IMG/VR virus record: IMGVR_UViG_3300045988_171089
Origin: a virus
DNA: 64,000 nucleotides
Reading direction: 5' to 3' (one strand)
Each line of letters begins with the position of its first letter. Position 1 is the stretch's first letter. The position numbers were made by a program, and so were the translations under genes. Below, in pieces: positions 9,225 through 32,732 of the stretch. A model generated the notes under the pieces. It saw only the letters and a list, made by a program, of their open reading frames with translations. It ran no database searches and was not told the DNA's origin.

Positions 9225-10010
9225 CTACTTCTTATTGTTCGCCTTCAGCTTTTCCAGCTCATCATCCAGAGCGGAATCAACAGCCAGAGAGTCCAGCTCA
9301 TCGAAGCCGTCCTTTACCGGGTCAGCCATAATCTCCTGACGACCCTGAAGACGTGCCTCCTCACGGGCGATACGCTCTTCCCACTCATTCATAGGCGAGC
9401 TCAGGTTAGTACCATTAACATTGATGCTCTCAGTAGCGTCAAGGATACGACCCATAGCCTCATTAGTCTTATGACGTGCCAGAAGCTCATCACGCTGGTG
9501 GTGAGCCGCCGCCAGCTTCTCACGTGCATCATTTAGCTGACCCTTCAGAGATTCAACACGCGGGGTAGCAACCTTAATCTGCTCCTCAAGCTTCTCAGTG
9601 GTCTTCTCAGCGTTAGTACGGTTCTTCAGGGCGATACGTGCCAGACCGTCAAACTTATCAGCCTTAGCCTCTGCTTCAGCCTTAGCCTTAGCCTGCTCCG
9701 GGTCTTCCGCGTCAAGCTTCTCAGCCTGCGCACGGAACTCATCAGCCTTATTAGAAGCCGCCTGAGCCTTAACCTGCCACTCCTGAATCTTAGCCTGTTC
9801 CTTCTTATGGTCGGACTCCATGATGCGCAGGTTGCCGATAACCTCAGCAACATTACCCTCCGCTACTCGAATTTCTTCCTTGTAGTCACGGATAAGCTGG
9901 TTCAGCATCTCCTGCGGGTCTTCCGCCTTGTCAATTGCGGTGTTAATCTTTGCGCGAATGAGGTTGTTGAAGCGTGCAAAAATGCTGTTCTTGTTCTGGT
10001 TCTTACCCAT
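9225..10010 (-). CDS. pspA: PspA/IM30/Vipp1-family protein (phage shock protein A-like, ~261 aa from ATG at 10010)
   Basis: N-terminal SIFARFNNLIRAKINTAIDKAEDPQEMLNQLIRDYKEEI matches PspA signature (S-IF-RF-DI-NINALLDKAEDPEKM-Q-IRDM); long coiled-coil; SD AAAGG upstream of 10010. Confidence 0.8.
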   Translation of the reverse strand: MGKNQNKNSIFARFNNLIRAKINTAIDKAEDPQEMLNQLIRDYKEEIRVAEGNVAEVIGNLRIMESDHKKEQAKIQEWQVKAQAASNKADEFRAQAEKLDAEDPEQAKAKAEAEAKADKFDGLARIALKNRTNAEKTTEKLEEQIKVATPRVESLKGQLNDAREKLAAAHHQRDELLARHKTNEAMGRILDATESINVNGTNLSSPMNEWEERIAREEARLQGRQEIMADPVKDGFDELDSLAVDSALDDELEKLKANNKK

Positions 10011-10183
10011 TGTGGGTTTACCTAACCTTTCGTTGGTTAATGTTGTGGAACATGATTCACGGTTGCCCATCCTGTAGGGCTTCCTGTCCTTTGCGTGACC
10101 TTTAATGGTCACACTCAGAATATCATGCTCCGGGGTTTAAATCTAGTGGGTTAGCGTTTTGTGGCTAACTGTTTACCTGCTAT

Positions 10184-10690
10184 TCACAGGCGGCGGGTTT
10201 CGATAACTGCTTCCGCCGGTTCGCCTTTGATAACGTTCAGGGTGTCGATAATAAGCTTAGCATATGCGGCAACATTGTCAATGTTGCGGGGACACGGGAC
10301 AAGTCGCCCTGTAACCTTACCTTGAGGGGCGGGGTCATCTACTAGGCGCGTTCGTGTTTCGCCGTCATTGGTGTACACCTCAGCTAGGAACATGAGGCGT
10401 TCCAGCTTCTCAGGGTACTCGGTCGCCCGGTCAGCAATCTGTTCAGGTCGCTGGTCGGTGAACCATGTGTAGTGGAAACATGGAAAGCCGGGGTGTTCCA
10501 GTACGCTTCGCTTCACCTCGAACGGGGGAATATAGATACCTTCGCCACCTGCGTCGGTTTCTGAGTATTTCCAGGCTACCCATTCTAGGTCTTCGATAAT
10601 CTGTTCGATAGTTCCTACGAGGGGGCGGATATTACCTGCCGGGTCGGTCAGTTGGTATAGCTCTTGGCTTGTGGGGGAATATTCTTTCAC
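10184..10690 (-). CDS. hypothetical protein (168 aa)
   Basis: ORF track. Confidence 0.55.
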   Translation of the reverse strand: MKEYSPTSQELYQLTDPAGNIRPLVGTIEQIIEDLEWVAWKYSETDAGGEGIYIPPFEVKRSVLEHPGFPCFHYTWFTDQRPEQIADRATEYPEKLERLMFLAEVYTNDGETRTRLVDDPAPQGKVTGRLVPCPRNIDNVAAYAKLIIDTLNVIKGEPAEAVIETRRL

Positions 10691-10803
10691 TTATACCCTT
10701 ATTGACAGTGGGTTCATGCGGGTGCTTGCACCTTTGTGTTGTACCGATTATAGCATATTTTCTGTCCGGTAGCACTTATTGGCGTTCTTACCTTTTTTCG
10801 GGT

Positions 10804-11154
10804 TTATGCACTGGGTGCCTTGGCGTATCGACCTGTGAGGCAGACGTGAAGCATCAAGTTCAGTAGGTGTGAAACCATGAGTACGGTACTGTCTGTAATG
10901 TTAGCACCTGCAAGAGCTTTGGACACAGCAAAGACGGATACGATAACACATGCCACCTCGAAGGCGATAGTGAAAACAAAAATTATTACCGCAGGGACAC
11001 GGTGATGCTTAAAAAGGTACGTCCGCCAAAGCTGGACAGAAAAGGTGTACCCTAAAGCACTACCGATAGACCTACAAGCGGTAGGGATGAAGATTGCCGA
11101 GGTTAGCACTAGGAGCCAGTGCATAATCTGCTCGGGGTGGCTCCACATTTCCAT
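10804..11154 (-). CDS. small membrane protein (116 aa, ~3 TM)
   Basis: Hydrophobic segments WLLVLTSAIFIP, AVIIFVFTIAFEVACVIVSVFAV. Confidence 0.5.
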   Translation of the reverse strand: MEMWSHPEQIMHWLLVLTSAIFIPTACRSIGSALGYTFSVQLWRTYLFKHHRVPAVIIFVFTIAFEVACVIVSVFAVSKALAGANITDSTVLMVSHLLNLMLHVCLTGRYAKAPSA

Positions 11155-11239
11155 ATATGCGTACTCCTGTCTAGTAGATAGGGGGTGGTAGCTTGGTTTA
11201 TGCCACCACCCCCCCTGTGCTGTTGGGCTGGTTGCCTGT

Positions 11240-11791
11240 TTAGTTGTTTACGTCTCGAACGTTCACCTTGAACTCACCCTTTACGTTTACGCCGTCCTTG
11301 GGTGCAACGATGGTGATTTCACCGTTCCGGTACTGTTCCTTGGTGCCGAGGGCGTAGGCGTAATCAATATCTTCAACAATGATACGCACCTTGGAGCGGG
11401 GTACGGTGTTGCTGTACAGTTCGCCTTCCTGGGTTCGCAGGGTGTAGTTTAGGTACACTTCGTAGCTGGTGTTCAGGGTAGCGTCCTGTGCTGAGGCTTG
11501 ATAGTCGGCTGTAAGCTTTCCCTTCAATTCGTGGTATCGCGTGTCGGTATCACTATTGACGTGGGGGTGCTCTTCACCCGTAATGTGCTGACGGGTCGTA
11601 AGGTTAGCGTTGATTACTACGGCTTCCTTAGCCTTCTCAGTAGGTTCAGGGCTAGGGGTAGTAGTACTAGTAGGGGTGCTAGTAGCGGTGGTAGTGGTTT
11701 CTTCTACCTTGTTTGCAGTATTTGTGCTGGAACAGCCGGTGAACGCGATAGCACCAATGAGGGCGGCGGCGGTCAGCTTGGAGAATTTCAT
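11240..11791 (-). CDS. lipoprotein (signal peptide + lipobox AFTGC, Thr/Ser/Pro-rich linker)
   Basis: MKFSKLTAAALIGAIAFTGCSS... followed by TTTTATSTPTSTTTPSPEP. Confidence 0.6.
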   Translation of the reverse strand: MKFSKLTAAALIGAIAFTGCSSTNTANKVEETTTTATSTPTSTTTPSPEPTEKAKEAVVINANLTTRQHITGEEHPHVNSDTDTRYHELKGKLTADYQASAQDATLNTSYEVYLNYTLRTQEGELYSNTVPRSKVRIIVEDIDYAYALGTKEQYRNGEITIVAPKDGVNVKGEFKVNVRDVNN

Positions 11792-11826
11792 TATTTAGGT
11801 TCCTTCCAAAGGGTTACGTTAGGGGG

Positions 11827-12078
11827 TTATCGGGTCTGAATGGAAATGCAGGGGGAATCTACGAAAGCTTCCAGGGCGCGCTTAGGGCTTCCCGCGTCAG
11901 CGGTACGGTCAAGGTAGATAGGATATTCCTTCACGCCGCGTGCATGGTATGCGAAAGTGCCAGGGCGCAACTTCCAGTCCTTATTATAGGTAATGATGCC
12001 TACTCGCTCATGGTTACCGTTCATGATTCGGTAAGTATCGTTTTGTACCTTCACTAAGTGAAGACCCTTGTATGCCAT
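11827..12078 (-). CDS. hypothetical protein (83 aa)
   Basis: ORF track. Confidence 0.5.
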   Translation of the reverse strand: MAYKGLHLVKVQNDTYRIMNGNHERVGIITYNKDWKLRPGTFAYHARGVKEYPIYLDRTADAGSPKRALEAFVDSPCISIQTR

Positions 12079-12429: not shown

Positions 12430-12663
12430 TTGGTGTACTTCCTTTCTAGAAGTGGTAGTGGATGCGGTGCCTAGTCTTGTCCGGCTAGTACCTTTGAGGT
12501 TCCCCCTCTTGCTTATGTAACCATTATGACACACCCCTAACCCTTATGCAAGTCAGATTCACGTGAATTAGGTCACATAGGGGATTACGGGGTGTAAAAA
12601 TAGAGTGTGCGAGAGGTTGCCAATTCATCTCCCGCACACCCTGGCTTATCACATGTTCGATTA

Positions 12664-13731
12664 CTAGCGGCGCTTACCGCGAGTCAAGAAGGCATTAGAA
12701 ACAACCTTGAAATGTGCGCGGTTAGCGAGTTCACGGCGCGGCTTACCATCTTTAAAGTACCATACGATACCTTCGGCGGTCTGACCGGGCGCTACCTGAG
12801 ACTCTACAGAGTCAGCCTGCTCAAGGGCGGCAAAGCCGTTACCCACCCATTCAATATCGAGGATAGGTACCCAGAGGTTCGCTTCCTTGAACAGGGATTC
12901 CACTTCGGCGTTAGATGCGTGGAAGGCACGGAAATCGGGCTGGTCGCCGGTGCTGAACTTGAAGTTACCCCCGATGCGGTTACAGAACAGTTCGCCCTGC
13001 ACCCATTCGCCTGGCTTGAGCTGGTCAAACACATAGGCGTGACGGCGGTAACCGTCAAGGTACTGCTTCCAGTTCTTACTATCCATTGCGTCTACCTTGA
13101 TGGAGCGGTCACGGTTAGCAATACGAATCTCTTCGGTGTCAATATCACGCCAAACGGTCATAGAGGTGCCGTCAATCTTCTCAGTAGCGTACACATCATT
13201 TGCAGTGACACTGCTCAGGAAGTCGATAGGGATATTCTGGACGCGCTCAGCGTCGGTCTTGGTAATGAAGTTGGGGAAAGCTTCTAGACCGTAGTCACCA
13301 CCGGTGAGAATCTTCTCCTCGACATGCTTAGTGACAATGCCATCGAAGTAAGTATCCACTTCTTCCTGAGTAGCATCTTCACTCAAACCTTCAAACTCAG
13401 AGACGGGCAAGATAAGACCCTGCGACAGGGTTTCACGCAGGTACATGGTGCGCAGTACTACGCCTTCAATATAGTGTCCATTGACAACGCGGGTTGCCTT
13501 CTTGCCACGGATAGGCTCAAACGCCGGGTGCTTGGTGTTGAGGATTGAGTCAATCTCAAAGTAAACACCCTTATCGCCTTCGGTCATGGTCTTGGGTGCT
13601 ACAACCCACCACAGGGTGCCTGCGGGTCGGACGGCGTGAATCTTATCTGCCGGGTTATTACATTCCTTCACTTCTTCAATGGTGGTAATGTGTGCGAGGT
13701 GTCGGATACCGTCTACAGCGGTAGAAGTCAT
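12664..13731 (-). CDS. ATP-dependent RNA ligase-like nucleotidyltransferase (355 aa)
   Basis: Covalent nucleotidyltransferase motifs in order: motif I KIDGTS (ATEKIDGTSMTVW), motif IV EGIVWYF, motif V FKVVS; KxDG(T/S) spacing typical of Rnl-type RNA ligases. Confidence 0.7.
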   Translation of the reverse strand: MTSTAVDGIRHLAHITTIEEVKECNNPADKIHAVRPAGTLWWVVAPKTMTEGDKGVYFEIDSILNTKHPAFEPIRGKKATRVVNGHYIEGVVLRTMYLRETLSQGLILPVSEFEGLSEDATQEEVDTYFDGIVTKHVEEKILTGGDYGLEAFPNFITKTDAERVQNIPIDFLSSVTANDVYATEKIDGTSMTVWRDIDTEEIRIANRDRSIKVDAMDSKNWKQYLDGYRRHAYVFDQLKPGEWVQGELFCNRIGGNFKFSTGDQPDFRAFHASNAEVESLFKEANLWVPILDIEWVGNGFAALEQADSVESQVAPGQTAEGIVWYFKDGKPRRELANRAHFKVVSNAFLTRGKRR

Positions 13732-14348: not shown

Positions 14349-14906
14349 CTACCAGTTAGAAGCAAACGCAGGCAACTCACGGGCAACACTCTCAAAATCC
14401 GTACCAACGAAAGAGCCAGCACCATTCATCTTAGTATCGCCTTCCACCTTCTTATTCATAAGGCGAACAGAGCCATACACCCACGCCGTATCACACACAG
14501 TACAGGAACCATCTAGGCGGGATTCACCGAACACCTGCGCCTTATCGTAGACCCATGACGTGCCACTAACCCAGGTGCGCCCGTGTATCTTAGCTTCACC
14601 ATAGATGAGAGGTGAACCGTACACGAAAGCGTTACCGGAAACTTCCGCCTGCTGTGCCACCTGTGCATCATCTTTAACTACAGCTGAACCGTACACAGTA
14701 GCATCATCATGAACCCATGCACCGCCGTCCTGTGACAGGTTGCCGGTTCCTTGAACCCAGCCGCCTAACGCACCCTTCGGGGCGATAAGCTTACCGTCGC
14801 TAGTGTACACATCTTCCAACGCGCGGATACGGTAGACAGTCACCCCGTTATCGAGTTGCTTGCTAATATCCGTCAGCTCATATTTCCTACTTGTTTCATT
14901 AGTCAT
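14349..14906 (-). CDS. hexapeptide-repeat (left-handed beta-helix) protein, paralog 2 of 3
   Basis: N-terminal KYELTDISKQLDNGVTVYRIRALEDV and GALGGWVQG...GGAWVHDDATVYGSAVVKDDAQVAQQAEVSGNAFVYG hexapeptide periodicity; paralog of 1852..2358. Confidence 0.65.
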   Translation of the reverse strand: MTNETSRKYELTDISKQLDNGVTVYRIRALEDVYTSDGKLIAPKGALGGWVQGTGNLSQDGGAWVHDDATVYGSAVVKDDAQVAQQAEVSGNAFVYGSPLIYGEAKIHGRTWVSGTSWVYDKAQVFGESRLDGSCTVCDTAWVYGSVRLMNKKVEGDTKMNGAGSFVGTDFESVARELPAFASNW

Positions 14907-15179: not shown

Positions 15180-16469
15180 TTAGCCGCCGGAGGTGCCGCC
15201 GCCGGACCTGGAACCGCCACCAAAGCCACCCTTAGAGCCACCGCTAGAGGAACCACCAGACTTGGAACCACCACCACCCGATGAGCCAGAACCACTGTTG
15301 CTACCGCCACTCTTAGAGCCAGAGTTAGAGTTACCACCATTATTGGAGGAGCCACTGTTGCTACCGGACTTGCTATCACTCTTGGAGTTATTAGAAGAGC
15401 CGTTACTGTTGCCGTTGGAGCCGCCACCGTTATTGTTCTTGTTAGCGTTATTGTTGTCGTTGTTCGGCTTGTTGTTATTGGTATCCTTACCGGCGTTGTT
15501 GTTATTGCCGGTATTGCTGTTGTTGCCGGACTTGTTGGCGGCTACAGCACCTGCCGCCGCTCCAGCCGCCGCACCTGCACCCGCCGCCGCCGCCGCGTTA
15601 CCACCATTATTGTTAGTGGTGCCACTATTACCGCTAGAAGAGCTGTTGCTACCGTTAGAGGTACCGGAATTAGACTTAGTGCCGTTACTAGTGGTCGGCT
15701 TATAGTTGTAACGCTCAATGGTTGCAACCTTACCGTCCTTCATGCCAGCCTTAGCTTTAGCGGCGCGGTAAGAATCAGCGAAAGAACCACCACTAGAAGG
15801 CAAGCCCTGGTAGACAGTACCCTTATTAGGGGTACTAGTACTACCACCATGCAGGGGTGCACCTACGGCGGGCACATTACCATTATTACCATTATTGATG
15901 TAGGTGGTGCCACCGGAGCCGTTCTGACCCATCATGTACCCGATGTAGTACCAGATAAACATGCTGGTGCCACTATTACTACCGTGGGTATCACCACCGC
16001 CGCCGCCACTATTGCCACCATTGTTAATATTGATATTCGTGCCACCATTATTGGAGGGGCTACTAGTAGGCGAAGCCGAAGGGGTAGCACTAGAAGACGC
16101 GGACGGGGAAGCGCTCGCGGTTGCAGACTCAGACACGGAAGGCGACGGGGAAGGCGAAGCCGATTCGGTAGCTTCACAGCTAGTATCCTCAGCGCGGGTA
16201 CCATCTTCAACCTTCTGGCACACACGGACATACTCAATGCCCTGCGTACTGAACGGAGTCTCACTAGGGGTAGGCTGAGTATTAGTCTCAGGGACACTAC
16301 AGCCCGAAAGGATTAGAGCACCAGCACCAGCGGTAGCAATAGCCTTTAGAAGCCTATTAGGGCGCGGACTCTTACCAATAGTGGGTGCGTCTTCATTCCA
16401 GGCGTGCAGGGCGCTCTGTGCGACTTCCTGAACATCTGGAATATCATTACGGCATGAAGAGGTATTCAT
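15180..16469 (-). CDS. lipoprotein with long Gly/Ser/Asn-rich low-complexity C-terminal region; start moved to ATG 16469 (strong SD AAGGAG)
   Basis: Signal peptide with lipobox ALILSGCS; ~300 aa of G/S/N/T low complexity; ORF track 15180..16523. Confidence 0.55.
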   Translation of the reverse strand: MNTSSCRNDIPDVQEVAQSALHAWNEDAPTIGKSPRPNRLLKAIATAGAGALILSGCSVPETNTQPTPSETPFSTQGIEYVRVCQKVEDGTRAEDTSCEATESASPSPSPSVSESATASASPSASSSATPSASPTSSPSNNGGTNININNGGNSGGGGGDTHGSNSGTSMFIWYYIGYMMGQNGSGGTTYINNGNNGNVPAVGAPLHGGSTSTPNKGTVYQGLPSSGGSFADSYRAAKAKAGMKDGKVATIERYNYKPTTSNGTKSNSGTSNGSNSSSSGNSGTTNNNGGNAAAAAGAGAAAGAAAGAVAANKSGNNSNTGNNNNAGKDTNNNKPNNDNNNANKNNNGGGSNGNSNGSSNNSKSDSKSGSNSGSSNNGGNSNSGSKSGGSNSGSGSSGGGGSKSGGSSSGGSKGGFGGGSRSGGGTSGG

Positions 16470-16659
16470 ATGTATATGGCTCCTTAGATAGAAGATAGGG
16501 GGTGTCTTGGTTGTATAACACAACCACTTTGCAAAACATTATAACACACCCCCCTTACCTGCCGCTAATCACGACAAATAAGGGGGGTGTACCAGAACTT
16601 CCATTCCTCAGTATATCACTACTACAGGTGAAATGCATAATTGCCTACACGGTAGCACT

Positions 16660-17463
16660 TCACACTGATTCGCTACCCGCTTCATGGTCAAGCTGTTTAG
16701 CAGGCAACGAGTTTAGATACCTGAATGTCTCAATAATGGCTTCAAGTTCCCTGAAATTCTCAGCTGTAATAGGTGCCTTACCAGCGTGCAGACCAGCACC
16801 CATATACACATAGAAGTCACCACGCCTAATCTTATAACAACTCACAGTGAACCTTGTTCCAGACGCACCCGTGAAGCTAATGAGCGTGTCATCCCATCCC
16901 CAATAGCCGTTTTCGTCATCAATGAAAACATCATGAAAAAGACCGGGGTTAGTAGCTTCGAGTGCTTCAGTAAACTCTGCCTTCTCGAAACGGTTAGCCG
17001 GGTCACAGTGAACCCAAACCGAAACAGTATCTTCCGCACCCTTATCGCCTCGATGGTTAAGGTCATACACTAGGTGGTCACCCTTAGCCCAACGTGATTT
17101 GAGGTAAGTATCAATATCTTCCCGCGTGATAGGGATACCCGACAGCTTAGCCGACTCCTCATGAAGGCGCGCCTTTTCCAGCTTCTCAGCCTCAATCTTT
17201 GCGCGTTCCTCAGCGGTAATAGGCGGCAATTTCATGCACGCCTCCTGCGGTAGGGTTTTACCCCTGCCGGTAGGCATCATCAAAGCCATAAGTCCCTTGA
17301 ATTTCTGTGGGGGTTGCGGCGCTTGAGGCTTATGCGTATAAACGACCTCAACTAGCCCATCATGCTCCCCAAGAACCGTGATACTCACTATATCACCATT
17401 ATGGCAATGTTCCTCGTTTGCGTCGTTTGCGTCTTCGCTATTTTCCCAAAACGGTAGCTTCAT
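16660..17463 (-). CDS. hypothetical protein, paralog pair member (267 aa)
   Basis: Shares NPG(L/M)FHDV and VSCYKI(R/H)RG motifs with 17482..18030. Confidence 0.55.
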   Translation of the reverse strand: MKLPFWENSEDANDANEEHCHNGDIVSITVLGEHDGLVEVVYTHKPQAPQPPQKFKGLMALMMPTGRGKTLPQEACMKLPPITAEERAKIEAEKLEKARLHEESAKLSGIPITREDIDTYLKSRWAKGDHLVYDLNHRGDKGAEDTVSVWVHCDPANRFEKAEFTEALEATNPGLFHDVFIDDENGYWGWDDTLISFTGASGTRFTVSCYKIRRGDFYVYMGAGLHAGKAPITAENFRELEAIIETFRYLNSLPAKQLDHEAGSESV

Positions 17464-17481: not shown

Positions 17482-18030
17482 TTAGCTATCCGAAACGCCC
17501 TGTGTGGGGGTCAAAGAATCAACGTACATAAACGCATCAAAGACAGCTTCCAACTCCTTGAGGCTCTGCTCCGTAACAAACAATGCACCACCATGCTTGC
17601 CGGTGGACATGCGTATATCAAACCCACGGTGAATCTTATAACAGGACACATGGAAACCGGCACCAGACTCGCCCCTGAAATCAACCCACGTTTCTTCCCA
17701 GTAGTCATACTGCTCCAAGCCCCAACCGCCAAGAGTTACATCATGGAACATTCCAGGGTTGCGGTCAATGAGCGCCCTCATGAAACCTCGCGGGTTAGGG
17801 TGGTTCTCCAAATTGCGGCAATGAACCATAACAGTAACAATGTCACCCTTATCCTCATGCTCATCATACTCAAAATCTCGCACAGTACCATCAGGGTAAC
17901 GTTCAGTCAGATACGCCTCAACCTGCTCCCCTGTAAAACGAACAGGCGACACAGCAACCGGCGCATCCTCATACACCTTCTTACTCTTAGAGGTTAGCGA
18001 CTCCAAAGCACGCTTGATTAGGCTCTTCAC
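17482..18030 (-). CDS. hypothetical protein, paralog pair member (182 aa)
   Basis: Paralog of C-terminal half of 16660..17463. Confidence 0.55.
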   Translation of the reverse strand: MKSLIKRALESLTSKSKKVYEDAPVAVSPVRFTGEQVEAYLTERYPDGTVRDFEYDEHEDKGDIVTVMVHCRNLENHPNPRGFMRALIDRNPGMFHDVTLGGWGLEQYDYWEETWVDFRGESGAGFHVSCYKIHRGFDIRMSTGKHGGALFVTEQSLKELEAVFDAFMYVDSLTPTQGVSDS

Positions 18031-18380: not shown

Positions 18381-19946
18381 TTATGCTTCCGCGTGTAGGC
18401 GTTCTGCTTCACACTGGATGTTGATTGCCGCGTTGAGGTCGCGGTCAATCACAGCGTGGCAGTGCCCACACTTATATACACGGTCGCTTAGAGTAAGCTT
18501 AGTGTCAGGTCGCTTACCACAGTTGCTACATGTCTGCGAGGACGGGTAATAGCGGTCGATAACCTGAATAACTGAACCATACCAGGCGGCTTTGTATTCA
18601 AGCTGAGTTCGGAATATACCGAAGGATACGTCGAGTACAGCTCGGTTGAGCCTGGCTTTCTGTGCAACGTTCTTACCAGGCTTTTTGATAGTACCTGATG
18701 CGGATGCGGTCATTCCAGTAACGTTAAGGTCTTCAATACCGATAAGTGTGTATCGGGTGGTTAGGTTTTTAGTGAGCTGATGCAGTCCAGTTTCACGGCG
18801 TAGCGCTGTGAGGTGGTGGGTTTTTGCCAGCTTACGGGCGGTCACCTTGCGGCGATTGGAACCCTTAACCTGTCGTGCAATTTTCTGCTGAAGCTTAGCG
18901 ATACGCTTCTCAGTGTGCTTGAGCCAGCGGGGGTTTTCGACGGTAGGGTTGGTTCCGTTGGTGAAGTTCACGCCACTATCGGGGTTGAAACGCTTAGGTG
19001 CCTTCGTGTCAGAGAGTGCCGCCATATACTTAACACCAAGGTCTACACCTACCGCACCCGCGTTCTTCTGCTTACGAGTAGGCTTAGGGGCGGGTACAGT
19101 TACTTCGACAAGGAAGGATACATACCAGCGGTCAGCTACCTGGGACACGGTGAAAGACTTGATTACACCACCCTTGCGGATAATACTCATCATGTGGCAG
19201 GTATTGCCGTGAATACGGAAAGTTCCAAGGTGCGCGAGGCGGACGTGACGGTAATCACTGATAGTAGGGGTGCTCTTGTCGCCGCGACGCTTCATGTTTT
19301 CTTTGACGCGCTTATATGCCGGTTCACCACGCAGGTACGCGGTTCCGTAACCACCCATAACTTCGGGTGCGTAAATAGTGAAAGAGTCACTATTAGATGC
19401 GCGACTTTTAAACTTAGGGGTACCCATCTTACCACCCGCACGCTTACCAGTACGCGAATCAAAAAAGTTCTTGAGTGCCTTATCAGCAGACTGTAGACCA
19501 GACATGAGGACACGACGCTTCGCAGTATGAAGCCACGGCTCCCTAGAACGCTCCTCGTCGCCCCACACTTCCTCCACAGGTGCACCTTCTTCGATAGCCT
19601 TAGCACAGGCGCGATGACGGGCAACCTCAGCAGTCAGCATCTTACTACTAAACGCCATATAACCCAGTGTCTTGAACTTAGGGTCTTCCTTGGTGAGAGT
19701 CTTAAGCTCAGCCTTAATCTCGTCATCAGACGCGCCCTCTTCGCGGCGCTTAGCCCAATACTTGTTGCGGGTGTGCATAACCTCAGTGTTATAACCAACA
19801 AGCATATTATAGGCATAACGAGAAGCACCACCATCACGCGCCAAAGCAACCAACTGCTCCTGAGTAGGGTCAAGGCAAAACTTAAACGCAACATGACGCT
19901 CAACGGTATCCGGCGACGTGCCGGTAGATTCAACAGTAGTGGGCAT
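18381..19946 (-). CDS. tnpB: TnpB (IS200/IS605-family OrfB, RuvC-like RNA-guided nuclease), ~521 aa from ATG 19946
   Basis: N-terminal AFKFCLDPTQEQ...ASRYAYN (OrfB_IS605 HTH); RuvC-I GVDLGV, RuvC-II IGIEDLNV, C-terminal zinc finger CSNCG...CGHC and RuvC-III RDLNAAINI; ORF track start 20045 includes a 33-codon upstream artefact. Confidence 0.85.
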   Translation of the reverse strand: MPTTVESTGTSPDTVERHVAFKFCLDPTQEQLVALARDGGASRYAYNMLVGYNTEVMHTRNKYWAKRREEGASDDEIKAELKTLTKEDPKFKTLGYMAFSSKMLTAEVARHRACAKAIEEGAPVEEVWGDEERSREPWLHTAKRRVLMSGLQSADKALKNFFDSRTGKRAGGKMGTPKFKSRASNSDSFTIYAPEVMGGYGTAYLRGEPAYKRVKENMKRRGDKSTPTISDYRHVRLAHLGTFRIHGNTCHMMSIIRKGGVIKSFTVSQVADRWYVSFLVEVTVPAPKPTRKQKNAGAVGVDLGVKYMAALSDTKAPKRFNPDSGVNFTNGTNPTVENPRWLKHTEKRIAKLQQKIARQVKGSNRRKVTARKLAKTHHLTALRRETGLHQLTKNLTTRYTLIGIEDLNVTGMTASASGTIKKPGKNVAQKARLNRAVLDVSFGIFRTQLEYKAAWYGSVIQVIDRYYPSSQTCSNCGKRPDTKLTLSDRVYKCGHCHAVIDRDLNAAINIQCEAERLHAEA

Positions 19947-21506: not shown

Positions 21507-21508
21507 CT

Positions 21509-21912: not shown

Positions 21913-22038
21913 TTGCCGCACCCCTACAAGCCGTTCACGTGATTAACTCGTATGATGCCCCTCAAGGCTCATGACAACCTCAAGGCACGACATGCTTTAA
22001 AGAAAAATGTACAGCCAACATGCCAAAACTGCACATAG

Positions 22039-22113
22039 TGCACCCTGTGGGGCTCGAACCCACGACCCGGCGGTTAAGAGCCGCCTGCTCTACCTGCTGA
22101 GCTAAAGGTGCGC
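22039..22113 (-). tRNA. tRNA-Lys(CTT)
   Basis: Acceptor GCACCTT/AGGGTGC, D-arm GCTC/GAGC, anticodon stem GGCGG/CCGCC loop CTCTTAA, T-arm GTGGG-TTCGAGC-CCCAC. Confidence 0.8.
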
Positions 22114-22227
22114 GGCGTACTGGCTGAAAGGGCTCGAAAGCACCAGTACGCCTTAATCAGTATTATTCGACTTTTGTCTTTAGTAAGCTTCCTGAAAGGA
22201 GTTAAGTAAAAAAGGAAGCTTACCGAG

Positions 22228-22297
22228 CATCTTACAGGGCTCGAACCTGTGACCTCCACACCAAAGTGCGGCGCTCTACCAACTGAGCTCAAGATGC
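22228..22297 (-). tRNA. tRNA, anticodon uncertain (possibly TTG/Gln); anticodon stem poorly paired
   Basis: Perfect acceptor GCATCTT/AAGATGC, D-arm GCTC-AGTTGGTA-GAGC, T-arm ACAGG-TTCGAGC-CCTGT; candidate loop CTTTGGT. Confidence 0.45.
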
Positions 22298-22439
22298 CGT
22301 CACAGCACAAATCAACTATGTGCACAGGTTTCACTGTACTATGACACCCCAGAGAGGATTCGCGAGTTCCACTCAAGAGGTCAGGGACTTTCGCGTTTAC
22401 ACCCCTGAATAATTGTAACGCACCATATAGCGCGTTCAG

Positions 22440-22517
22440 TACGCCCTACGGGACTCGAACCCGTGCCACTTGTCCCAGTCGGTGACTCCAGGGCTCTACC
22501 ATCTGAGCTAAGGACGT
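22440..22517 (-). tRNA. tRNA, anticodon undetermined (78 nt; extra nucleotides between D-arm and T-arm)
   Basis: Acceptor ACGTCCT/AGGGCGT, D-arm GCTC-AGATGGTA-GAGC, T-arm ACGGG-TTCGAGT-CCCGT; middle region CCTGGAGTCACCGACTGGGACAAGTGGC does not give a standard 17-nt anticodon arm. Confidence 0.4.
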
Positions 22518-22679
22518 TACCGCACCCTAAGTAACCACCAAAGGGTACACCTAAAGGCTCGCGACTTCCTCTAGGTTACTCAAAGAAGGTGAATAGGTAA
22601 AAGCCCTCCTTTGAGAAGTATTGACACATACGTTACAGCAATGTTTAAAAGTGTAGTTGATGTGTCTAAACTACACTAG

Positions 22680-22761
22680 TACGCCCGGAGGGACTTGAAC
22701 CCTCACGTCCGAAGACACAGGAACCTAAATCCTGCGTGTCTGCCAATTTCACCACGGGCGC
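22680..22761 (-). tRNA. tRNA-Leu(TAG) (type II, long variable arm)
   Basis: Acceptor GCGCCCG/CGGGCGT, 3-bp D-stem, anticodon stem CAGGA/TCCTG loop TTTAGGT, variable arm GTC-TTCG-GAC, T-arm GAGGG-TTCAAGT-CCCTC. Confidence 0.8.
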
Positions 22762-22790
22762 TTATACAAGATAGTGATTATCTTGCAGAG

Positions 22791-22863
22791 TGGACCGTAT
22801 GGGAATCGAACCCATGACCTCCTGCTTGCAAAGCAGGCGCTCTACCAATTGAGCTAACAGCCC
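22791..22863 (-). tRNA. tRNA-Ala(TGC)
   Basis: Acceptor GGGCTGT/ACGGTCC (G3.T70 wobble, Ala identity-like), D-arm GCTC/GAGC, anticodon stem CCTGC/GCAGG loop TTTGCAA, T-arm ATGGG-TTCGATT-CCCAT. Confidence 0.8.
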
Positions 22864-22929
22864 TCACCCTTCAGTGTTATATATGACTGAAGGGGTGTTT
22901 GTTAAGAAGTGTTTTAGGCTTCTTGTTTG

Positions 22930-23002
22930 TGCGCCCTACGGGGCTCGAACCCGTGACCCGAAGATTAAAAGTCTACTGCTCTACCAACTGAGCTAAAGGC
23001 GC
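22930..23002 (-). tRNA. tRNA-Lys(TTT)
   Basis: Acceptor GCGCCTT/AGGGCGC, D-arm GCTC/GAGC, anticodon loop CTTTTAA, T-arm ACGGG-TTCGAGC-CCCGT; preceded by promoter 23015-23043. Confidence 0.8.
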
Positions 23003-23014
23003 TTACAAGGAACA

Positions 23015-23043
23015 AGTATATCATGTTCCTTTGTGTTTTGCAA
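23015..23043 (-). promoter_or_regulatory. promoter TTGCAA-N17-TATACT immediately upstream of tRNA-Lys(TTT)
   Basis: Near-identical to the element at 9014-9042. Confidence 0.6.
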
Positions 23044-23113
23044 AATTCACTATTTAGTGTTGTCAATTATCTAGTGTCTAAGTAAACAGTGTTTTGCTGT
23101 CTTCTTGACTTGC

Positions 23114-23131
23114 GTACTCCCAACGGGATGA
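23114..23131 (-). pseudogene. short tRNA-Glu-like 3' fragment (ATCCCGTTGGGAGTAC) flanking repeat copy E
   Basis: Resembles T-stem 3' half + acceptor 3' strand of tRNA-Glu. Confidence 0.35.
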
Positions 23132-23297
23132 GTCACCCCCGTATATACGGTAGGTGAGCCAAAGCTTTACTTCGACGGTGACCCTCAAGCCAGCCTAAGC
23201 TGACCCTGGTCTTGACACGTGAATGTCCGTTTAGATTAGCCACCTCTCCCAGTCTCTCACAGGCGAGGTGAGTGAACACACCCTAGAGTATGTTACG
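23130..23297 (-). repeat. tRNA-linked structured repeat element, copy E
   Basis: Full-length copy directly 3' of tRNA-Glu(TTC). Confidence 0.7.
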
Positions 23298-23370
23298 TGC
23301 CCCTAACGGGATTTGAACCCGTGTTACCGCCGTGAAAGGGCAGTGTCCTTGGCCGCTAGACGATAGGGGC
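23298..23370 (-). tRNA. tRNA-Glu(TTC)
   Basis: Perfect acceptor GCCCCTA/TAGGGGC, 3-bp D-stem, anticodon stem CTGCC/GGCGG loop CTTTCAC, T-arm ACGGG-TTCAAAT-CCCGT. Confidence 0.8.
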
Positions 23371-25317: not shown

Positions 25318-26073
25318 TTATCGCGTGAAGAAGAGTAGGAATAGTAGAGCCATGACGAGTGCAATCACTACCCATGTTATCGCAACGCTTTTCGGGTCAA
25401 TACGCTCCTGTGTTCCCCATTCAGGTTTCCCCGAGGTGCTGATTAGTTTCTTGGAGCCCCTTGGGGGTTTTAGTGCCTTTACATCTTTCTGGTAGTCGCT
25501 AAAGCGTGCACATTCAATAAGATGCTGGTCAGTGAACTTCCAGTCGCTCGCGGGTAGCACGCCAGCATCAAACATTGCGCTTAGCACAATTTTTTGGGCT
25601 TGCTTGCGGGTAATATTTCCACCCTTGGTGGTCGCGACATATTCGGTGATTCGCTTGAGTACCCTATCGCCGTCGTCTTCTACACAGAAGTACTTGGGGC
25701 GCTCTGACTTCTGTTTACTGTAGAACTTACTCAGAGCGTCGCTGATGGTTTCCGGCATAGGGTCGTACATCATTCCGCGAATATTGTATGATGCTAGGTG
25801 CCTCAAGTAGTCACGGGGCTCGGCGGGTTTGAGGGGTAGGTTGATTTCCTTGTAGATACCATCTTGTGAAGAACTGACGGTAATATCGCATTTGTATTCA
25901 TCCATACTGAGCCGCATTTTTTCGCCGCCCTCATCTACGAACTGAGGGTAAATATCCTTGAAGGTTCGCCGGAACTCTGGAACCTGGTTTGCGATTCCAG
26001 TCATGAGCATTAGCGCCTGGGTGTAGTATGCGTAAAACTCAATCTTAGAGTCGTTCAGGGTTGCCCTACGCAT
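25318..26073 (-). CDS. hypothetical protein with C-terminal TM anchor (251 aa)
   Basis: ORF track; C-terminal WVVIALVMALLFLLFF. Confidence 0.55.
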   Translation of the reverse strand: MRRATLNDSKIEFYAYYTQALMLMTGIANQVPEFRRTFKDIYPQFVDEGGEKMRLSMDEYKCDITVSSSQDGIYKEINLPLKPAEPRDYLRHLASYNIRGMMYDPMPETISDALSKFYSKQKSERPKYFCVEDDGDRVLKRITEYVATTKGGNITRKQAQKIVLSAMFDAGVLPASDWKFTDQHLIECARFSDYQKDVKALKPPRGSKKLISTSGKPEWGTQERIDPKSVAITWVVIALVMALLFLLFFTR

Positions 26074-26932
26074 TGTGTGCCGCCTTAATTTTCTTAACCT
26101 TTTCCACTAGCATAAGGTTAGTTAGCGCCTTCTCATCAAGCGTTTCCCCGGCAAGCTCAGCGGCGGCTTCTAGCCGCGCCTGGAGGGTCTTAATGTTTCG
26201 GCTAACATCACCATTATCAAGGTTGCTTGAAATACTTGACACGATAGCGGCACTATTAGCGATTCCGCCCAGGGCTTCTAGCTGATTGAGGTTAATCTCG
26301 ATGGTGTTGATGTTCGCATCAAGTGACTGTACGTGCTTTTGAATCTCAAGGATGGAGCTTTCCGCGTGCTTGATGTCGTCTTCTACACGGGTGAGGCGTG
26401 CCGCAAGCTCTAGAACTTCCGCATCTTCAGGGCTACCTGAATATTTGTGGATTTGGTAGTTCAGGTTGTTCTTTTCGGCGTTGTAGTTTGCCAGTAGAGC
26501 ACGTAGGTTATTGAGTGGTTCTGCTACTTCTCCTAGTTCCTGTCGTGCTTTGGCGTGCTGGTGCTTTAGGTGCTTGGTGTCCGGGTGGGTTTCTCGCATG
26601 TCGTATACGTGCTTTCCTTTGAAAAATTTGTACTGGTCGATGATGTCTAGGCTTCGGGCTGTTCGTCCCCTATATGCTTGAAATGCGGGGCGGAGTAGCT
26701 TCTCTAGGTCTTCCTCTGTGATTCCCTGTGCATTGGTCTTGAGCTTCGCGTAGTAGTCCCGCATGGACTTTTTGAGGACTGCTCGCTGGTTTGGGTCTGT
26801 GGTGTGTAGCAAGGTGCGTTCTGTGTCACCTTGTGCGAAGCGCCTTACTTGAATGTTTACACTCATTATATTTTTCCTGTCTTCTAGGGGGTATTGTCGT
26901 ATTGTGGATACCCTGCTTTTGGGGGCAACCAA
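26066..26932 (-). CDS. coiled-coil hypothetical protein (288 aa)
   Basis: ORF track. Confidence 0.55.
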   Translation of the reverse strand: MVAPKSRVSTIRQYPLEDRKNIMSVNIQVRRFAQGDTERTLLHTTDPNQRAVLKKSMRDYYAKLKTNAQGITEEDLEKLLRPAFQAYRGRTARSLDIIDQYKFFKGKHVYDMRETHPDTKHLKHQHAKARQELGEVAEPLNNLRALLANYNAEKNNLNYQIHKYSGSPEDAEVLELAARLTRVEDDIKHAESSILEIQKHVQSLDANINTIEINLNQLEALGGIANSAAIVSSISSNLDNGDVSRNIKTLQARLEAAAELAGETLDEKALTNLMLVEKVKKIKAAHNA

Positions 26933-27093: not shown

Positions 27094-28371
27094 TTACTTA
27101 CCAGAGACACCATGAAACTCATACACGGGCTTATTTCCCTTATCGTCTAGTTTGCCCTCTAGCGAGTCGTACAGTTCGTACCCGCCGGTAGAGTTTACGG
27201 TCATTGAACCGGTTAGGCTAATGTTGTTGGCGATAGTCAGGTCACCGTTAATTTCAATGTCGCCGCTAATGGTTGCTTGTGCAATGCATTTAACATTGTC
27301 ATCAATGGTTACCTTACCGTCTACTGTCGCATAGTAGAGTGTCAGCTCTTCACTGCTTAGGGTGGGCTTGGTGCCGATAGTGACTTCACCCGTGATATTG
27401 GAGCCTGCAACCTTTGTTTTCCTATTGATTCGCACGTCACCTGAGATGATGGAGCGGGCTAGGACGGTAGTGTATTCGCCAATATAGGCGTTACCTGCTA
27501 CTAGTGAACCATCACTGACTTTACCTTTTACGTGTGCGGTGCCTGCTACCCAGCTGTAAGGTTCGAGGTTGTCGTATTCTTTGACGTATCCGCCTTGTTC
27601 ACCGGCGCGAACTTTCCAATCGTCTTTACCGTATGGTTGCGTGAAGTCGTGGATAGCTTCTACGGGGTAGTATTTTTCCCCTTCGTAGGTTTCCGGCTTG
27701 TCCCACACAACCCTGTGTGTCCTTGCGGAGGTGCGAGGGTATGCTAGTAGGTGCTTGTGCGCTTCGCGGTATTTACGTCCGAACCGTAGTGTCTTGCCTG
27801 TGTAGCGGCTAAACACGGTTCCGGGTAGAACTTGGTAGCTTTTACTGATTCCTGGGTCTAGGTCGTAGCGGGGCGGCTTCTTGTAGTCGTAGTATTTTTT
27901 GATGACTACCCCGGCAACTTCCAGGTATCGGCATGATTCGTTGATGCGGGCGTACTCTGCTAGGGATACCCACCCGAGGTCGGGGCGGGGCATCATTATT
28001 TCCGTATAGTCGAGGTCACGGAATGTCTCGTGCGCATATTTTTCCAAGGCTTCAACTATTGGCTCAAGAGGTGGAAGGCACCTTACCCGTGCTTGCATAG
28101 GTAGGTAGCCGTCTATGAAGTTAGGGTGGTTCTTGATTCGGTTCCAGCGTTTAGCTAGAACGTCTTCGGGTACTTCTAGGATTTCAGCTAGTGCCCTTGT
28201 TCCACCTTCGACCCATAGGTTCATGAGGCGCTGTTCTTGCCCGATGAGAGCTACCACTGTTTTTGGGTCTGGAACGTTTTTAGCTGTTACACTGCCTTGA
28301 GGCTCGGGGGTAAGGCGCACGGGGACTAGCGGCTTCTTGCTGGAGCCGGTGGTGGTTTTATGTTTGGTCAT
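27094..28371 (-). CDS. hypothetical protein with C-terminal hexapeptide/beta-helix repeat domain, paralog 3 of 3
   Basis: C-terminal ~150 aa (WVAGTAHVKGKVSDGSLVAGNAYIGEYTTV...) homologous to 1852..2358 and 14349..14906. Confidence 0.6.
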   Translation of the reverse strand: MTKHKTTTGSSKKPLVPVRLTPEPQGSVTAKNVPDPKTVVALIGQEQRLMNLWVEGGTRALAEILEVPEDVLAKRWNRIKNHPNFIDGYLPMQARVRCLPPLEPIVEALEKYAHETFRDLDYTEIMMPRPDLGWVSLAEYARINESCRYLEVAGVVIKKYYDYKKPPRYDLDPGISKSYQVLPGTVFSRYTGKTLRFGRKYREAHKHLLAYPRTSARTHRVVWDKPETYEGEKYYPVEAIHDFTQPYGKDDWKVRAGEQGGYVKEYDNLEPYSWVAGTAHVKGKVSDGSLVAGNAYIGEYTTVLARSIISGDVRINRKTKVAGSNITGEVTIGTKPTLSSEELTLYYATVDGKVTIDDNVKCIAQATISGDIEINGDLTIANNISLTGSMTVNSTGGYELYDSLEGKLDDKGNKPVYEFHGVSGK

Positions 28372-30501: not shown

Positions 30502-30523
30502 GATGTGTCCTTTCTTAGGGGGG

Positions 30524-30991
30524 TTAGTTTACGGCTTTGGTTGCTTCTTTGAGCTTGTTGCGTCCGTAGTTGTATAGGGTGATTGAGCGGTCGAGGAAGT
30601 TTTTAGCTTCCTGGAGTCGTTTCATTTGAATATCGTAGGTGGTTAGCTCTTCGATTCCTTCGTAGGGGATTGCTGTGAAGTCTTCGTTGAGGGTTTGGGC
30701 TACGTCGTTTGTGAAGGCGAACCTGTGGGTGTCGATGTCGTTTGAGAGCTTAACCAGGTCAGCGTATAGTGACTGATTGGTTTTGGCTAGGGTGCCGTCA
30801 TTGATTTTCTCTTCAATGTTGATGGTGTTGAAGTTCGTGTATGCCTCTGTTACGGCTTCTACACGCTTCGTGTCAAGCTCTTCTTGCTTGAGGGCGACTA
30901 GGGTACGGTCTGCTTCAAGCTGTAGCTCATATAGGGCTTCAAGCTTTACACCAATGTTCGCTAGTACTTCGTCCATTTCAGGGGTATTCAT
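30524..30991 (-). CDS. coiled-coil hypothetical protein; start moved to ATG 30991 (SD GGAAAGGAAAAGG)
   Basis: ORF track 30524..31147; internal ATG with strong SD. Confidence 0.5.
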   Translation of the reverse strand: MNTPEMDEVLANIGVKLEALYELQLEADRTLVALKQEELDTKRVEAVTEAYTNFNTINIEEKINDGTLAKTNQSLYADLVKLSNDIDTHRFAFTNDVAQTLNEDFTAIPYEGIEELTTYDIQMKRLQEAKNFLDRSITLYNYGRNKLKEATKAVN

Positions 30992-31196
30992 TGTGCGCCT
31001 TTTCCTTTCCTGTAGTGGCTTGGGTGTCTTGTAATAACTTCTATAACTATTATGCCACACCCTATAGGTGTGTGCAAGCCTGAAACCGTGATTTATGCCA
31101 CACCCTAAATTTGACATAAAGGAAACCCCTAACCTAAGAGAGTTCATGCTCTATAGGTTAGGGGCTTATGTGTGCCGTGCTCTACGCCATTACATG

Positions 31197-32732
31197 CTAG
31201 AGGTAGTTTTCCTCAGCATCTAGAGGCTCTAGGGTAGGCTCAGCTTCCTTCTTAGTATCCTTAGCGGCGTTATTGATTCCGCTACCAATAGCTCGACCGG
31301 TTACGGTTGCCTGAATCAGGTCACGAACGTCAAGTCCTAGACCGGCGGTTACCTTGTCCATGCTGGTCATGATGTCTCCAACCATCTGCCCGGCATTACC
31401 TTCACCGTACATGGTGATGCTATCAACATTGTTCAGTGGCTCAGATACGGCGCGTGCAACTTCAGGTAGGACATTGACAAGCATCTCGATAACAGCGGCA
31501 TCCTTCATCTTGAGCATTGCCTCTGCCTTCTTGTCTAGACCGTCTGCTTCTGCTTCAAGCTTGAGGCGCACTGCTTCTGCTTCAGCTTCACCACGTAGGC
31601 GGATTGCGTCTGCTTCTGCTTCTGCCGTCATCTTGAGAGCTTCCGCTTCCTGCTGGCGGCGGTAAGCCTCAGCTTCAGCGGTCATCTTCAGCACTTCTGC
31701 TTCCTGCTGGCGGCGGTACGCTTCAGCTTCGGACTTCTTCATGCTCTCGAACAGTTCAGCCTGTGCGCGCTGTTCACGTGCTCGACGTTCAGTGTTCGCG
31801 GTTTCTTCAACCTCAGCGACTAGGGTCTGCTTTCGGACTTCGACTTCCTTAGCCTTGACCTGTGCTTCCTTTTCCTGCCGGACAATGTTAGCGTTAGCGC
31901 GGGCGGCTTCGGTTCGGCTTCGCTGGTTCTCGTACTCAGTCTCGAACGCGGCTTCAGCGATTGCTCGTTCCTTCTCAGCTTCAGCCTTGAGCTGACTCTT
32001 AGAAATTTCGAGCTCGTTCTGCCTCTTAGCGATTTCCTTATCAGCGGCGACACGTGCGTCGTTTGCCAGCTTTTCAGAGCTTGCCTGCTGTTCCTCAATC
32101 TTCTGGGTTGCGATAGCCTTAGCGGTTGCCGCTTCCTGTCGAATCTTCTCGGTATTGTCAGCACCAAGGTTGTCGATAACACCCTTATCGTCACGGACGG
32201 TCTGGATGTTGAACGCTACGATTTCTAGACCCATTTCCTCTAGGTCGTTCGTTGCGTTTTCCTGAACCTTGTTAGCGAGCTGTTGCCTATCTTGGACGAT
32301 AGCCTTCAGCTCCATTTCACCAATGATGGAACGCAGGTGACCTTCAAGGGTTTCACGTACCGAGTCAGCGATTTCAATATCAGTCCTGCCGAGGAAGTTT
32401 CGGGCGGCAACCTCGAACAGTTCCTTACGGTCTAGACCAATACGTACCTTCACTTCAGCTTCAGCCTGCACATTGATAAAGTCGTTAGTAGGGGTGCTAC
32501 CGTTCGTCTTCACATCAATAGATACCATGCTTGCGGTCATGGAGTCTACACGCTCAATGAACGGGACACGCCAACCAGTCTTACCCTGTAGTACACGGAT
32601 ACCACGGCGACCTGAGATGACCTTCACCTCACCGGGGCTTGCCGATACGATACCTGCCATGAAGATTGCCACACCGATACCAATGATGATGAGTGCGGCT
32701 ACGGCGATAATTAGTAGGTTCGCTACTTGCAT
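31197..32732 (-). CDS. SPFH/band-7 (flotillin-like) membrane protein with long coiled-coil tail
   Basis: N-terminal TM (LLIIAVAALIIIGIGVAIFMAGIV) then SPFH-like core (EVKVISGRRGIRVLQGKTGWRVPFIE...) and EA-repeat coiled coil; start moved to ATG 32732 (SD GGAAAG). Confidence 0.75.
   Translation of the reverse strand: MQVANLLIIAVAALIIIGIGVAIFMAGIVSASPGEVKVISGRRGIRVLQGKTGWRVPFIERVDSMTASMVSIDVKTNGSTPTNDFINVQAEAEVKVRIGLDRKELFEVAARNFLGRTDIEIADSVRETLEGHLRSIIGEMELKAIVQDRQQLANKVQENATNDLEEMGLEIVAFNIQTVRDDKGVIDNLGADNTEKIRQEAATAKAIATQKIEEQQASSEKLANDARVAADKEIAKRQNELEISKSQLKAEAEKERAIAEAAFETEYENQRSRTEAARANANIVRQEKEAQVKAKEVEVRKQTLVAEVEETANTERRAREQRAQAELFESMKKSEAEAYRRQQEAEVLKMTAEAEAYRRQQEAEALKMTAEAEADAIRLRGEAEAEAVRLKLEAEADGLDKKAEAMLKMKDAAVIEMLVNVLPEVARAVSEPLNNVDSITMYGEGNAGQMVGDIMTSMDKVTAGLGLDVRDLIQATVTGRAIGSGINNAAKDTKKEAEPTLEPLDAEENYL

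Follow-up and report, generated by a model that had tools for sequence, protein, structure and literature searches.

The DNA analyzed here, referred to below as the window, is a 64,000-nucleotide stretch from IMG/VR virus record IMGVR_UViG_3300045988_171089. It is part of an extrachromosomal element of approximately 260 to 310 kb that recurs in metagenomes of the human-mouth type. The carrier is probably a jumbo phage, and our best guess for its host is an oral actinobacterium of the genus Rothia. Two genes, one at each end of the interval between positions 9225 and 32732, encode a PspA/IM30 protein and a flotillin of the SPFH group:

9225-10010, minus strand: pspA, 261 amino acids (aa)
31197-32732, minus strand: flotillin gene, 511 aa

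PspA proteins form the bacterial branch of the ESCRT-III superfamily and were named for their induction by a phage protein. On balance, we lean toward the view that the element, a likely jumbo phage of an oral actinobacterium, acquired these two stand-alone membrane-homeostasis effectors and keeps them under selection, and that they act to keep the host membrane sealed and energized.

PspA and flotillin are full-length members of their families

The start of pspA was set at the ATG at 10010, in agreement with its orthologs (P0001 and others); the GTG at 10112 reported by the open reading frame (ORF) tool lies too far upstream. The protein matched the PspA/IM30 family (PF04012) over profile positions 1 to 218 of 220, with an E value of 2.3e-28 and a score of 99.7 bits against a cutoff of 33.9. 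When the PDB was searched with a 65-sequence profile, Vipp1/PspA structures (8qbw, 6zvr, 7o3w, 7abk, and 4whe) were matched over the full length with E values from 1e-33 to 7e-13. An AlphaFold2 model of the protein was all-helical, with helices at residues 10 to 28, 32 to 98, 104 to 198, 204 to 228, and 231 to 260; its mean predicted local distance difference test (pLDDT) score was 75, exceeding 90 in the long hairpin, with low confidence at the N-terminal helix and at residues 196 to 236. The best 14 Foldseek matches of this model in the PDB were all Vipp1/PspA assemblies, and the fold it predicts is ESCRT-III-like, consisting of a long alpha1/alpha2-3 hairpin and further helices.

When 14 sequences were aligned, the element protein was colinear with cellular PspA proteins, running from helix SIFARFNNLIRAKINTAIDKAEDP at the N terminus to the REEA/LKA segment at the C terminus; 43 columns were invariant. 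The sequences of the N-terminal helix, of the AEDP motif, and of the REEA segment near the C terminus were conserved with cellular PspA. The hydrophobic moment of the N-terminal helix was 0.45, similar to the 0.43 found for Rothia PspA, but it fell in the upper part of the range given by shuffled controls (95th percentile, 0.52). The initial annotation had proposed the PspA/IM30 identity and had named a chance N-terminal match, such as a generic coiled coil, as the finding that would overturn it. Coverage of the whole PF04012 domain, the Vipp1/PspA matches in the PDB, and the AlphaFold2 model all bear out the assignment, and the full-length alignment gave an end-to-end match to Vipp1/PspA. A chance coiled-coil match is thus excluded by the Pfam, alignment, PDB profile, and Foldseek results.

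The element protein shares the full-length layout of cellular PspA, IM30, Vipp1, and LiaH (N-terminal helix, AEDP, hairpin, and REEA) and is closest to the Rothia proteins. It differs from them in its location on a giant mobile element rather than a chromosome, in its identity of only 43 to 48%, and in an Ala/Glu/Lys-rich insertion of 16 to 27 aa at the hairpin tip (approximately residues 98 to 125). In the alignment, this insertion was common to all element-borne orthologs and absent from the cellular ones, which makes it a structural variant of PspA that is open to testing. Its scores against the NCBIfam models of proteobacterial PspA and LiaH did not reach the equivalog cutoffs.

The regulatory surroundings of cellular PspA are also missing. 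No PspF/B/C, LiaIFSR, PspM, or TPM partner lies near the element copy, and none of the Psp, Lia, and flotillin partners sought (these and Toastrack and NfeD) was found among the 67 ORFs of the window. At the Rothia-type chromosomal locus, a gene for a 689-aa TPM_phosphatase protein is found directly upstream of pspA. Comparison by hhalign found no significant second PspA-like protein among the coiled-coil ORFs (26066-26932, 900-1736, 30524-31147, and 1490-2428 of locus L114, described below); the best match was confined to 42 C-terminal residues (E value of 0.011, probability of 4%).

The initial annotation was likewise correct about the SPFH/flotillin protein. Its Band_7 (PF01145, E value of 5e-21) and Flot (PF15975, E value of 6e-9) domains both scored above the Pfam cutoffs, and the structures of human flotillin-1 and -2 were matched with an E value of 6e-63. 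The NCBIfam FloT model aligned over positions 47 to 474 of 477 with an E value of 5e-64, at 217 bits against an equivalog cutoff of 700 bits, and the sequence is therefore classified as FloT-like, not as a FloT equivalog. The predicted architecture comprises an N-terminal membrane anchor (one hydrophobic segment of 19 residues with a mean hydropathy of 3.18), the SPFH/Band_7 domain, an EA-rich coiled coil, and the Flot C-terminal domain. Within the coiled coil (approximately residues 345 to 395), an 18-aa unit, AEAEAYRRQQEAEvLKMT, is present in two copies, compared with one to three copies in close relatives.

Thus, the protein has the same anchor, SPFH domain, EA-rich coiled coil, and C-terminal domain as FloT (YuaG) and eukaryotic flotillin-1/2, but it differs from FloT in its subthreshold equivalog score, the variable 18-aa repeat, and the absence of an NfeD/YuaF-type neighbor. 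The ORFs flanking the gene belonged to no Pfam or NCBIfam family; the closest cellular flotillin homologs likewise have no adjoining NfeD/YuaF-type partner. A PADLOC search returned nothing for the flotillin. As for known antiphage defense families, it gave only weak coiled-coil noise (LmuB, JetC, and PbeC).

Both genes recur under purifying selection and have different relatives

Orthologs of pspA and of the flotillin gene were found on many independently assembled metagenome contigs of 215 to 310 kb, those of pspA being 88 to 96% identical. Both genes occurred together on ODJI01000013.1, on QWBZ01000001.1, and on contigs of 286,469 and 309,856 bp. The surroundings of pspA (the RNA ligase, a lipoprotein, and small ORFs) remained syntenic down to a relative whose PspA was 57% identical. 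Pairwise ratios of nonsynonymous to synonymous substitution rates (dN/dS) ranged from 0.03 to 0.09 for the flotillin gene; for pspA, they ranged from 0.14 to 0.28 among close relatives and reached approximately 0.4 to a distant one. Both genes are under purifying selection.

The nearest cellular PspA proteins are those of Rothia mucilaginosa and Rothia sp., followed by those of Streptomyces and other actinobacteria. In the PspA tree, the element clade sat on a long branch and midpoint rooting was uninformative, so that Rothia is named here as nearest by similarity. The nearest flotillins (60 to 64% identity) were encoded on ORFan-rich contigs of 24 to 30% GC and approximately 245 to 516 kb, where their neighbors were NrdD, NAMPT, Pnkp-Rnl1, and RecJ or, alternatively, a G5 protein and a 1,512-aa protease. 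In a neighbor-joining tree, the window flotillin grouped with these low-GC giant-contig proteins with a bootstrap value of 90. The next groups out were the flotillins of Alloscardovia, of Streptococcus (56 to 59%), and of Actinomyces/Schaalia (49 to 53%), and no Rothia flotillin was present among the best 80 genome hits. Unlike FloT (YuaG), the flotillin belongs to a clade of giant mobile-element-like contigs of very different GC content, and its lineage appears to pass between giant elements that are unrelated but share a habitat, the oral microbiome.

One of the more distant flotillins, 59% identical to that of the window, was encoded on a contig of a Streptococcus metagenome-assembled genome (JAUMZQ010000001.1; positions 3566-9637 of locus L088). 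Its gene stands in a type III CRISPR-Cas locus, with cas2 on one side and cas6-cas10/csm1 on the other, and may be either an accessory gene or an insertion.

Although pspA and the flotillin gene share the minus strand, they do not form an operon, nor are they a module by position, because they lie 21 kb apart and have separate transcription signals.

PspA was not found among catalogued phages

No PspA was found by tblastn in 50,697 phage records, no PHROGs family matched the protein, and Foldseek returned no BFVD match to the model below an E value of 1e-3. Six IMG/VR contigs carried PspA relatives. Four of these (L104 to L107) encoded a Rothia-like PspA, and the gene content of L104 and L105, as well as of a matching locus (L110), was chromosome-like (an adhesin, Rce1, and cell-wall hydrolases); these loci were rejected as viral PspA. 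The other two, L108 and L109, were ambiguous, gene content having been examined for L108 only. PspA also occurs on megaplasmids of Micrococcaceae of 375 to 440 kb.

Flotillins gave few matches in phage records, mostly unannotated fragments or the SPFH domain alone at 22 to 27% identity, while 13 IMG/VR contigs carried flotillins at 35 to 44% identity. A megablast search for close relatives of the window among catalogued phages returned only tRNA matches, and in text searches we found no paper describing either a phage-encoded PspA or this element. The capture of host-type housekeeping genes by such genomes is known already; what is notable is the presence of PspA, which is otherwise absent from catalogued phages.

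The carrier has phage-type gene content and a promoter-like element nearly specific to its family

The window has a GC content of 49%, and its credible genes lie almost entirely on the minus strand. A Pfam family was found in only approximately 6 of the 67 ORFs, leaving 91% without one. There are 16 tRNA genes, 15 of which form an array at 20301-23370, with a separate tRNA-Lys gene at 8927-9002. The window also encodes a Ro60/TROVE protein with a vWA domain (2916-4517) and a PHA02142-type RNA ligase (12664-13731). The best catalogued relatives of the ligase were found in Arthrobacter and Microbacterium phages of approximately 190 kb; in one Microbacterium phage record, the ligase was only 31% identical. 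Loci of the same element family add ThyA (thymidylate synthase), DHFR, Pnkp, a second RNA ligase, a UvrD helicase, MoxR with a VWA protein, and a Bax-inhibitor-1-like membrane protein. One 56-kb family fragment is classed as viral in IMG/VR, and jumbo phages are common in the mouth (bioRxiv 10.1101/2020.07.06.186817). The initial annotation treated the DNA as that of a phage. The phage-type gene content and the IMG/VR family fragment favor that designation, but it is not established, since virion genes were not recognized.

A promoter-like element of approximately 75 nt, of a strong sigma-A type, was present in 15 copies in the window, all on the gene-bearing minus strand and none on the plus strand. 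It consists of a TGTGA-N6-TCACA palindrome, a gap of approximately 10 nt, TTGCAT, a 17-nt spacer, and an extended -10 sequence, TGTGyCATAAT. The -10 sequences start at 56530, 55041, 54146, 52406, 44613, 41958, 40646, 40130, 36785, 34868, 24744, 23548, 14234, 12533, and 2807. The palindrome equals the consensus of CRP/GlxR-type operators. The repeated element suggests coordinated transcription, possibly under a CRP-family regulator. Searching with a 48-nt pattern based on the element retrieved at least 115 stretches of metagenome contigs, almost all on contigs of 215 to 306 kb with 46 to 52% GC, and also one 56-kb IMG/VR contig. With the conserved motif, this element family can be detected specifically in metagenomes.

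Several observations concern the RNA-related genes. Three tRNA-Lys genes are present in total, and the anticodon loop of one tRNA is odd. Beside the array, a TnpB gene of the IS605 type (18381-20045) is inserted; the TnpB copies of relatives are located elsewhere. In relatives, Pnkp and the second RNA ligase join Ro60/TROVE and the first RNA ligase, forming an RNA-repair set of the kind that phages use against tRNA-cleaving defenses.

The pair most likely keeps the host membrane sealed and energized

The most likely function of the two proteins is that the host cytoplasmic membrane is kept sealed and energized for the benefit of the element. The initial annotation had envisaged management of the host envelope, among other possibilities, and envelope management by the element is the most reasonable of the readings. 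Both genes would be transcribed by the host RNA polymerase. They lie in a part of the genome that has dense promoters, many ORFans, and genes on a single strand, and that resembles an early or host-takeover region. PspA would bind stressed or leaky patches of the cytoplasmic membrane via its putative N-terminal amphipathic helix and then polymerize into a lattice of the ESCRT-III type, sealing proton leaks. The flotillin would be held in the membrane by its N-terminal hydrophobic segment and would assemble SPFH scaffolds that keep the membrane fluid and organized. It may also recruit or concentrate PspA, as does the SPFH protein YdjI/SamI in Bacillus subtilis. Because host regulators, such as the TPM-domain partner found in Rothia, are absent beside either gene, the element copies would be uncoupled from the stress circuitry of the host. 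Overall, membrane potential and integrity would be held through a long replication cycle, possibly against the element's own many membrane proteins, membrane-depolarizing defense effectors, or the antimicrobial peptides of the mouth.

Precedents for such a pair exist in cellular bacteria. PspA of B. subtilis depends on an SPFH protein to reach the membrane (PMC8581546), and pspA genes occur in operons that also encode transmembrane (TM), band-7, and flotillin proteins (PMC11237479). By analogy, a functional partnership of PspA and flotillin is plausible. The element shares with the B. subtilis pspA-ydjGHI (samGHI) genes and with those operons the co-occurrence of PspA and an SPFH protein in one genome; it differs from samGHI in that its genes are 21 kb apart and its SPFH protein is of the membrane-anchored FloT type rather than the cytosolic YdjI type. 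No YdjG/H-like genes were recognized on the element. Large-phage auxiliary genes and the stress cargo of Inocles offer a second comparison, with the same capture of cellular housekeeping or stress genes that are then kept under selection.

A further suggestion of the initial annotation, that the pair serves to delay lysis, found no local support, there being no holin or endolysin gene near either gene. Its description of many small membrane proteins and lipoproteins in the region holds: approximately 17 ORFs have predicted TM segments, and lipobox-type signal peptides were recognized in at least four (46031-46462 and 50757-51128, found by regular expression; 11240-11791 and 15180-16523, found by eye in the translations).

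Several points weigh against membrane maintenance by a phage-encoded pair. The co-function of PspA and flotillin is an assumption, as the genes are nonadjacent and have different promoters. Their relatives differ, and the two genes were therefore acquired separately and not as a unit. The hairpin-tip insertion could change PspA assembly or make the protein dominant-negative. As to the carrier, no capsid, portal, terminase, or tail genes were recognized in the window. Nor were virion genes recognized among 71 representative proteins, each 220 aa or longer, encoded in approximately 195 kb of nonredundant family sequence, a sample that covers about half of each genome and, being drawn with the promoter motif, is biased to early-type regions, so that late genes may be unsampled. 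Since no virion genes were seen, the infection-cycle framing may be wrong. In addition, some genes of the family are plasmid-like: a RepSA-like initiator, a UvrD-like helicase, and a TM-anchored FtsK/SpoIIIE-like protein on one family contig (L163), and a T2SSE-family ATPase located 3 to 4.5 kb past the end of the window on L114, a locus that is 100% identical to window positions 61274-64000 and reaches 7.2 kb further.

These findings bear on a second reading, in which the carrier is a giant plasmid-like element of an oral bacterium, similar to the Inocles of oral Streptococcus, and PspA and flotillin are envelope-stress-tolerance cargo that favors the cells keeping the element. The stresses in question would be lantibiotics, host antimicrobial peptides, and pH. 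We consider this reading possible but doubtful. The unrecognized virion and packaging genes, in the window and among the 71 family proteins, are what it would predict, as are the RepSA-like, FtsK/SpoIIIE-like, and T2SSE ATPase genes. It also agrees with the presence of PspA on the Micrococcaceae megaplasmids and with the contigs of the closest flotillins, which fit published Inocles in size and GC content. Inocles carry stress and cell-wall genes, although PspA and flotillin are unmentioned in the paper describing them (PMC12340149). However, the link to Inocles is one of size and GC content alone, FtsK-like and Rep-like families also exist in PHROGs, and the bias of the promoter-motif sampling offers another explanation for the missing late genes. 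The 15 near-identical strong promoters driving short ORFan runs on one strand, the 91% of ORFs without a Pfam family, and the viral classification of a family fragment likewise argue for a phage, and large lytic phages typically have the combination seen here of a tRNA array with RNA ligases, Pnkp, Ro60, ThyA, and DHFR.

Another explanation assigns to PspA alone a role in counterdefense. When the CBASS of Bacillus cereus is placed in B. subtilis, Cap2 conjugates the cyclase specifically to PspA, which delays activation of the cyclase and weakens immunity at low CBASS expression (PMC11153139). By that precedent, the element PspA might be a decoy, either a conjugation sink that holds a type II CBASS cyclase inactive or a protein interfering with infection sensing linked to the host PspA. 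Its divergence from the host type (43 to 48% identity), its hairpin-tip insertion, and its lack of host regulators would suit such a role. Still, the features for membrane binding and assembly all appear to have been kept, which a pure decoy would not need, and the flotillin is left unexplained. Nor does anything indicate that the presumed host carries a type II CBASS or that one there uses PspA. We regard the decoy as very unlikely.

The least probable account is that a giant bacterial virus or virus-like element reshapes the host membrane for its own structures with its own extended-hairpin PspA and flotillin. PspA would serve as an ESCRT-III-type scission or tubulation machine and flotillin as the scaffold of a compartment or vesicle, an assembly platform, or a route of budding, vesicle release, or transfer. 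The ESCRT-III fold of PspA and Vipp1, the match of the model to membrane-tubulating Vipp1/PspA assemblies, the wealth of small membrane proteins in the region, and the element-specific insertion, which could alter polymer geometry, are in keeping with this account. Were it true, it would be a bacterial parallel to the use of ESCRT by eukaryotic and archaeal viruses. However, the window yielded no Vps4-like ATPase, no gene for lipid synthesis, and no second protein of the ESCRT-III type, PspA and flotillin are ordinary in domain content, and their genes are clustered neither with each other nor with any structural gene. The initial annotation had itself offered compartment building as an option; with no other remodeling component and no second PspA-like protein, it gained no support.

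If the pair maintains the membrane, as we prefer, its conservation on a large mobile genome suggests that a sealed and energized host membrane can be limiting for very large phages or giant plasmids. The element would then offer a naturally occurring case of a PspA that operates free of the regulators of its host.

One further gene touches on this theme. A 244-aa ORF with six or seven TM segments (positions 3802-4536 of locus L123, on contig QWCO01000015.1 of the same element family) was identified by elimination as the probable source of the Bax-inhibitor-1-like match (PF12811, E value of 6e-42). Such a protein would be the third host-type gene related to membranes or cell death on the element and fits the theme of membrane protection.

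Neighboring genes and transcription signals

The signals and ORFs found around the two genes are as follows:

32983-33429, minus strand: 148-aa ORF with one membrane pass, lying upstream of the flotillin gene; no match found to NfeD or any other Pfam, NCBIfam, or PADLOC family
approximately 32915-32960: GC-rich hairpin with a T-run, resembling a terminator of the gene upstream of the flotillin promoter-like site; consensus match only
32854-32883, minus strand: sigma-70-type promoter-like site (TTGATA-18-TACACT) just upstream of the flotillin gene; consensus match only
30524-31147, minus strand: 207-aa helical ORF, 49 nt downstream of the flotillin gene; no family found
12470-12583 (-10 at 12533), minus strand: nearest copy of the repeated promoter element upstream of pspA, which is last in the ensuing gene run
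10184-12078, minus strand: genes between this promoter copy and pspA, namely an 83-aa ORF, the lipoprotein gene at 11240-11791, a membrane protein gene at 10804-11154, and a 168-aa ORF; no detectable family

No convincing terminator was found between the promoter copy at 12470-12583 and pspA. The 207-aa ORF is possibly cotranscribed with the flotillin gene.

Other features of the window and its extension

The lipoprotein predicted at 15180-16523 (lipobox LSGC) has a mature part made almost wholly of low-complexity Ser, Gly, Asn, and Ala. Three pairs of ORFs resembled paralogs by eye (16660-17463 and 17482-18030; 32983-33429 and 39168-39641; 61679-62722 and 63329-63892), sharing either C-terminal domains or a TM segment with a Cys-rich ectodomain.

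Beyond the window, positions 40-6162 of L114 (1.1 to 7.2 kb past position 64000) contain the T2SSE ATPase gene, genes for a pair of paralogous membrane proteins (180 aa each) and for a coiled-coil protein of 312 aa, and a 542-aa ORF whose N-terminal half is rich in G, V, and S. This last ORF (L114 positions 4534-6162) had no precomputed Pfam match and no annotated homologs, its likeness to the replication-relaxation domain (PF13814) of InoC, the marker protein of Inocles, being by eye only. Searches for phage relatives by tblastn with the T2SSE ATPase, the 542-aa, 1,150-aa, and RepSA-like ORFs, and a 1,551-aa concatenate of unknown ORFs yielded nothing useful, and PDB searches were likewise uninformative.

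Toward the end of the window, base composition becomes strongly strand asymmetric. The plus strand is A+C rich at 57250-57750 and then reaches up to 88% G+T, with only 3 to 8% A, at 57750-63250. Between 57.7 and 60.5 kb, there is no credible ORF and there are many degenerate short repeats. The asymmetric stretch at 57250-63250 may be an origin or terminus region, and gene orientation switches a few kilobases further on.

Finally, three paralogous beta-solenoid proteins resembling YdcK and bactofilin are encoded at 1852-2358, 14349-14906, and 27094-28371. Two of them match phrog_5070 and phrog_7964, and further copies are present in related contigs.

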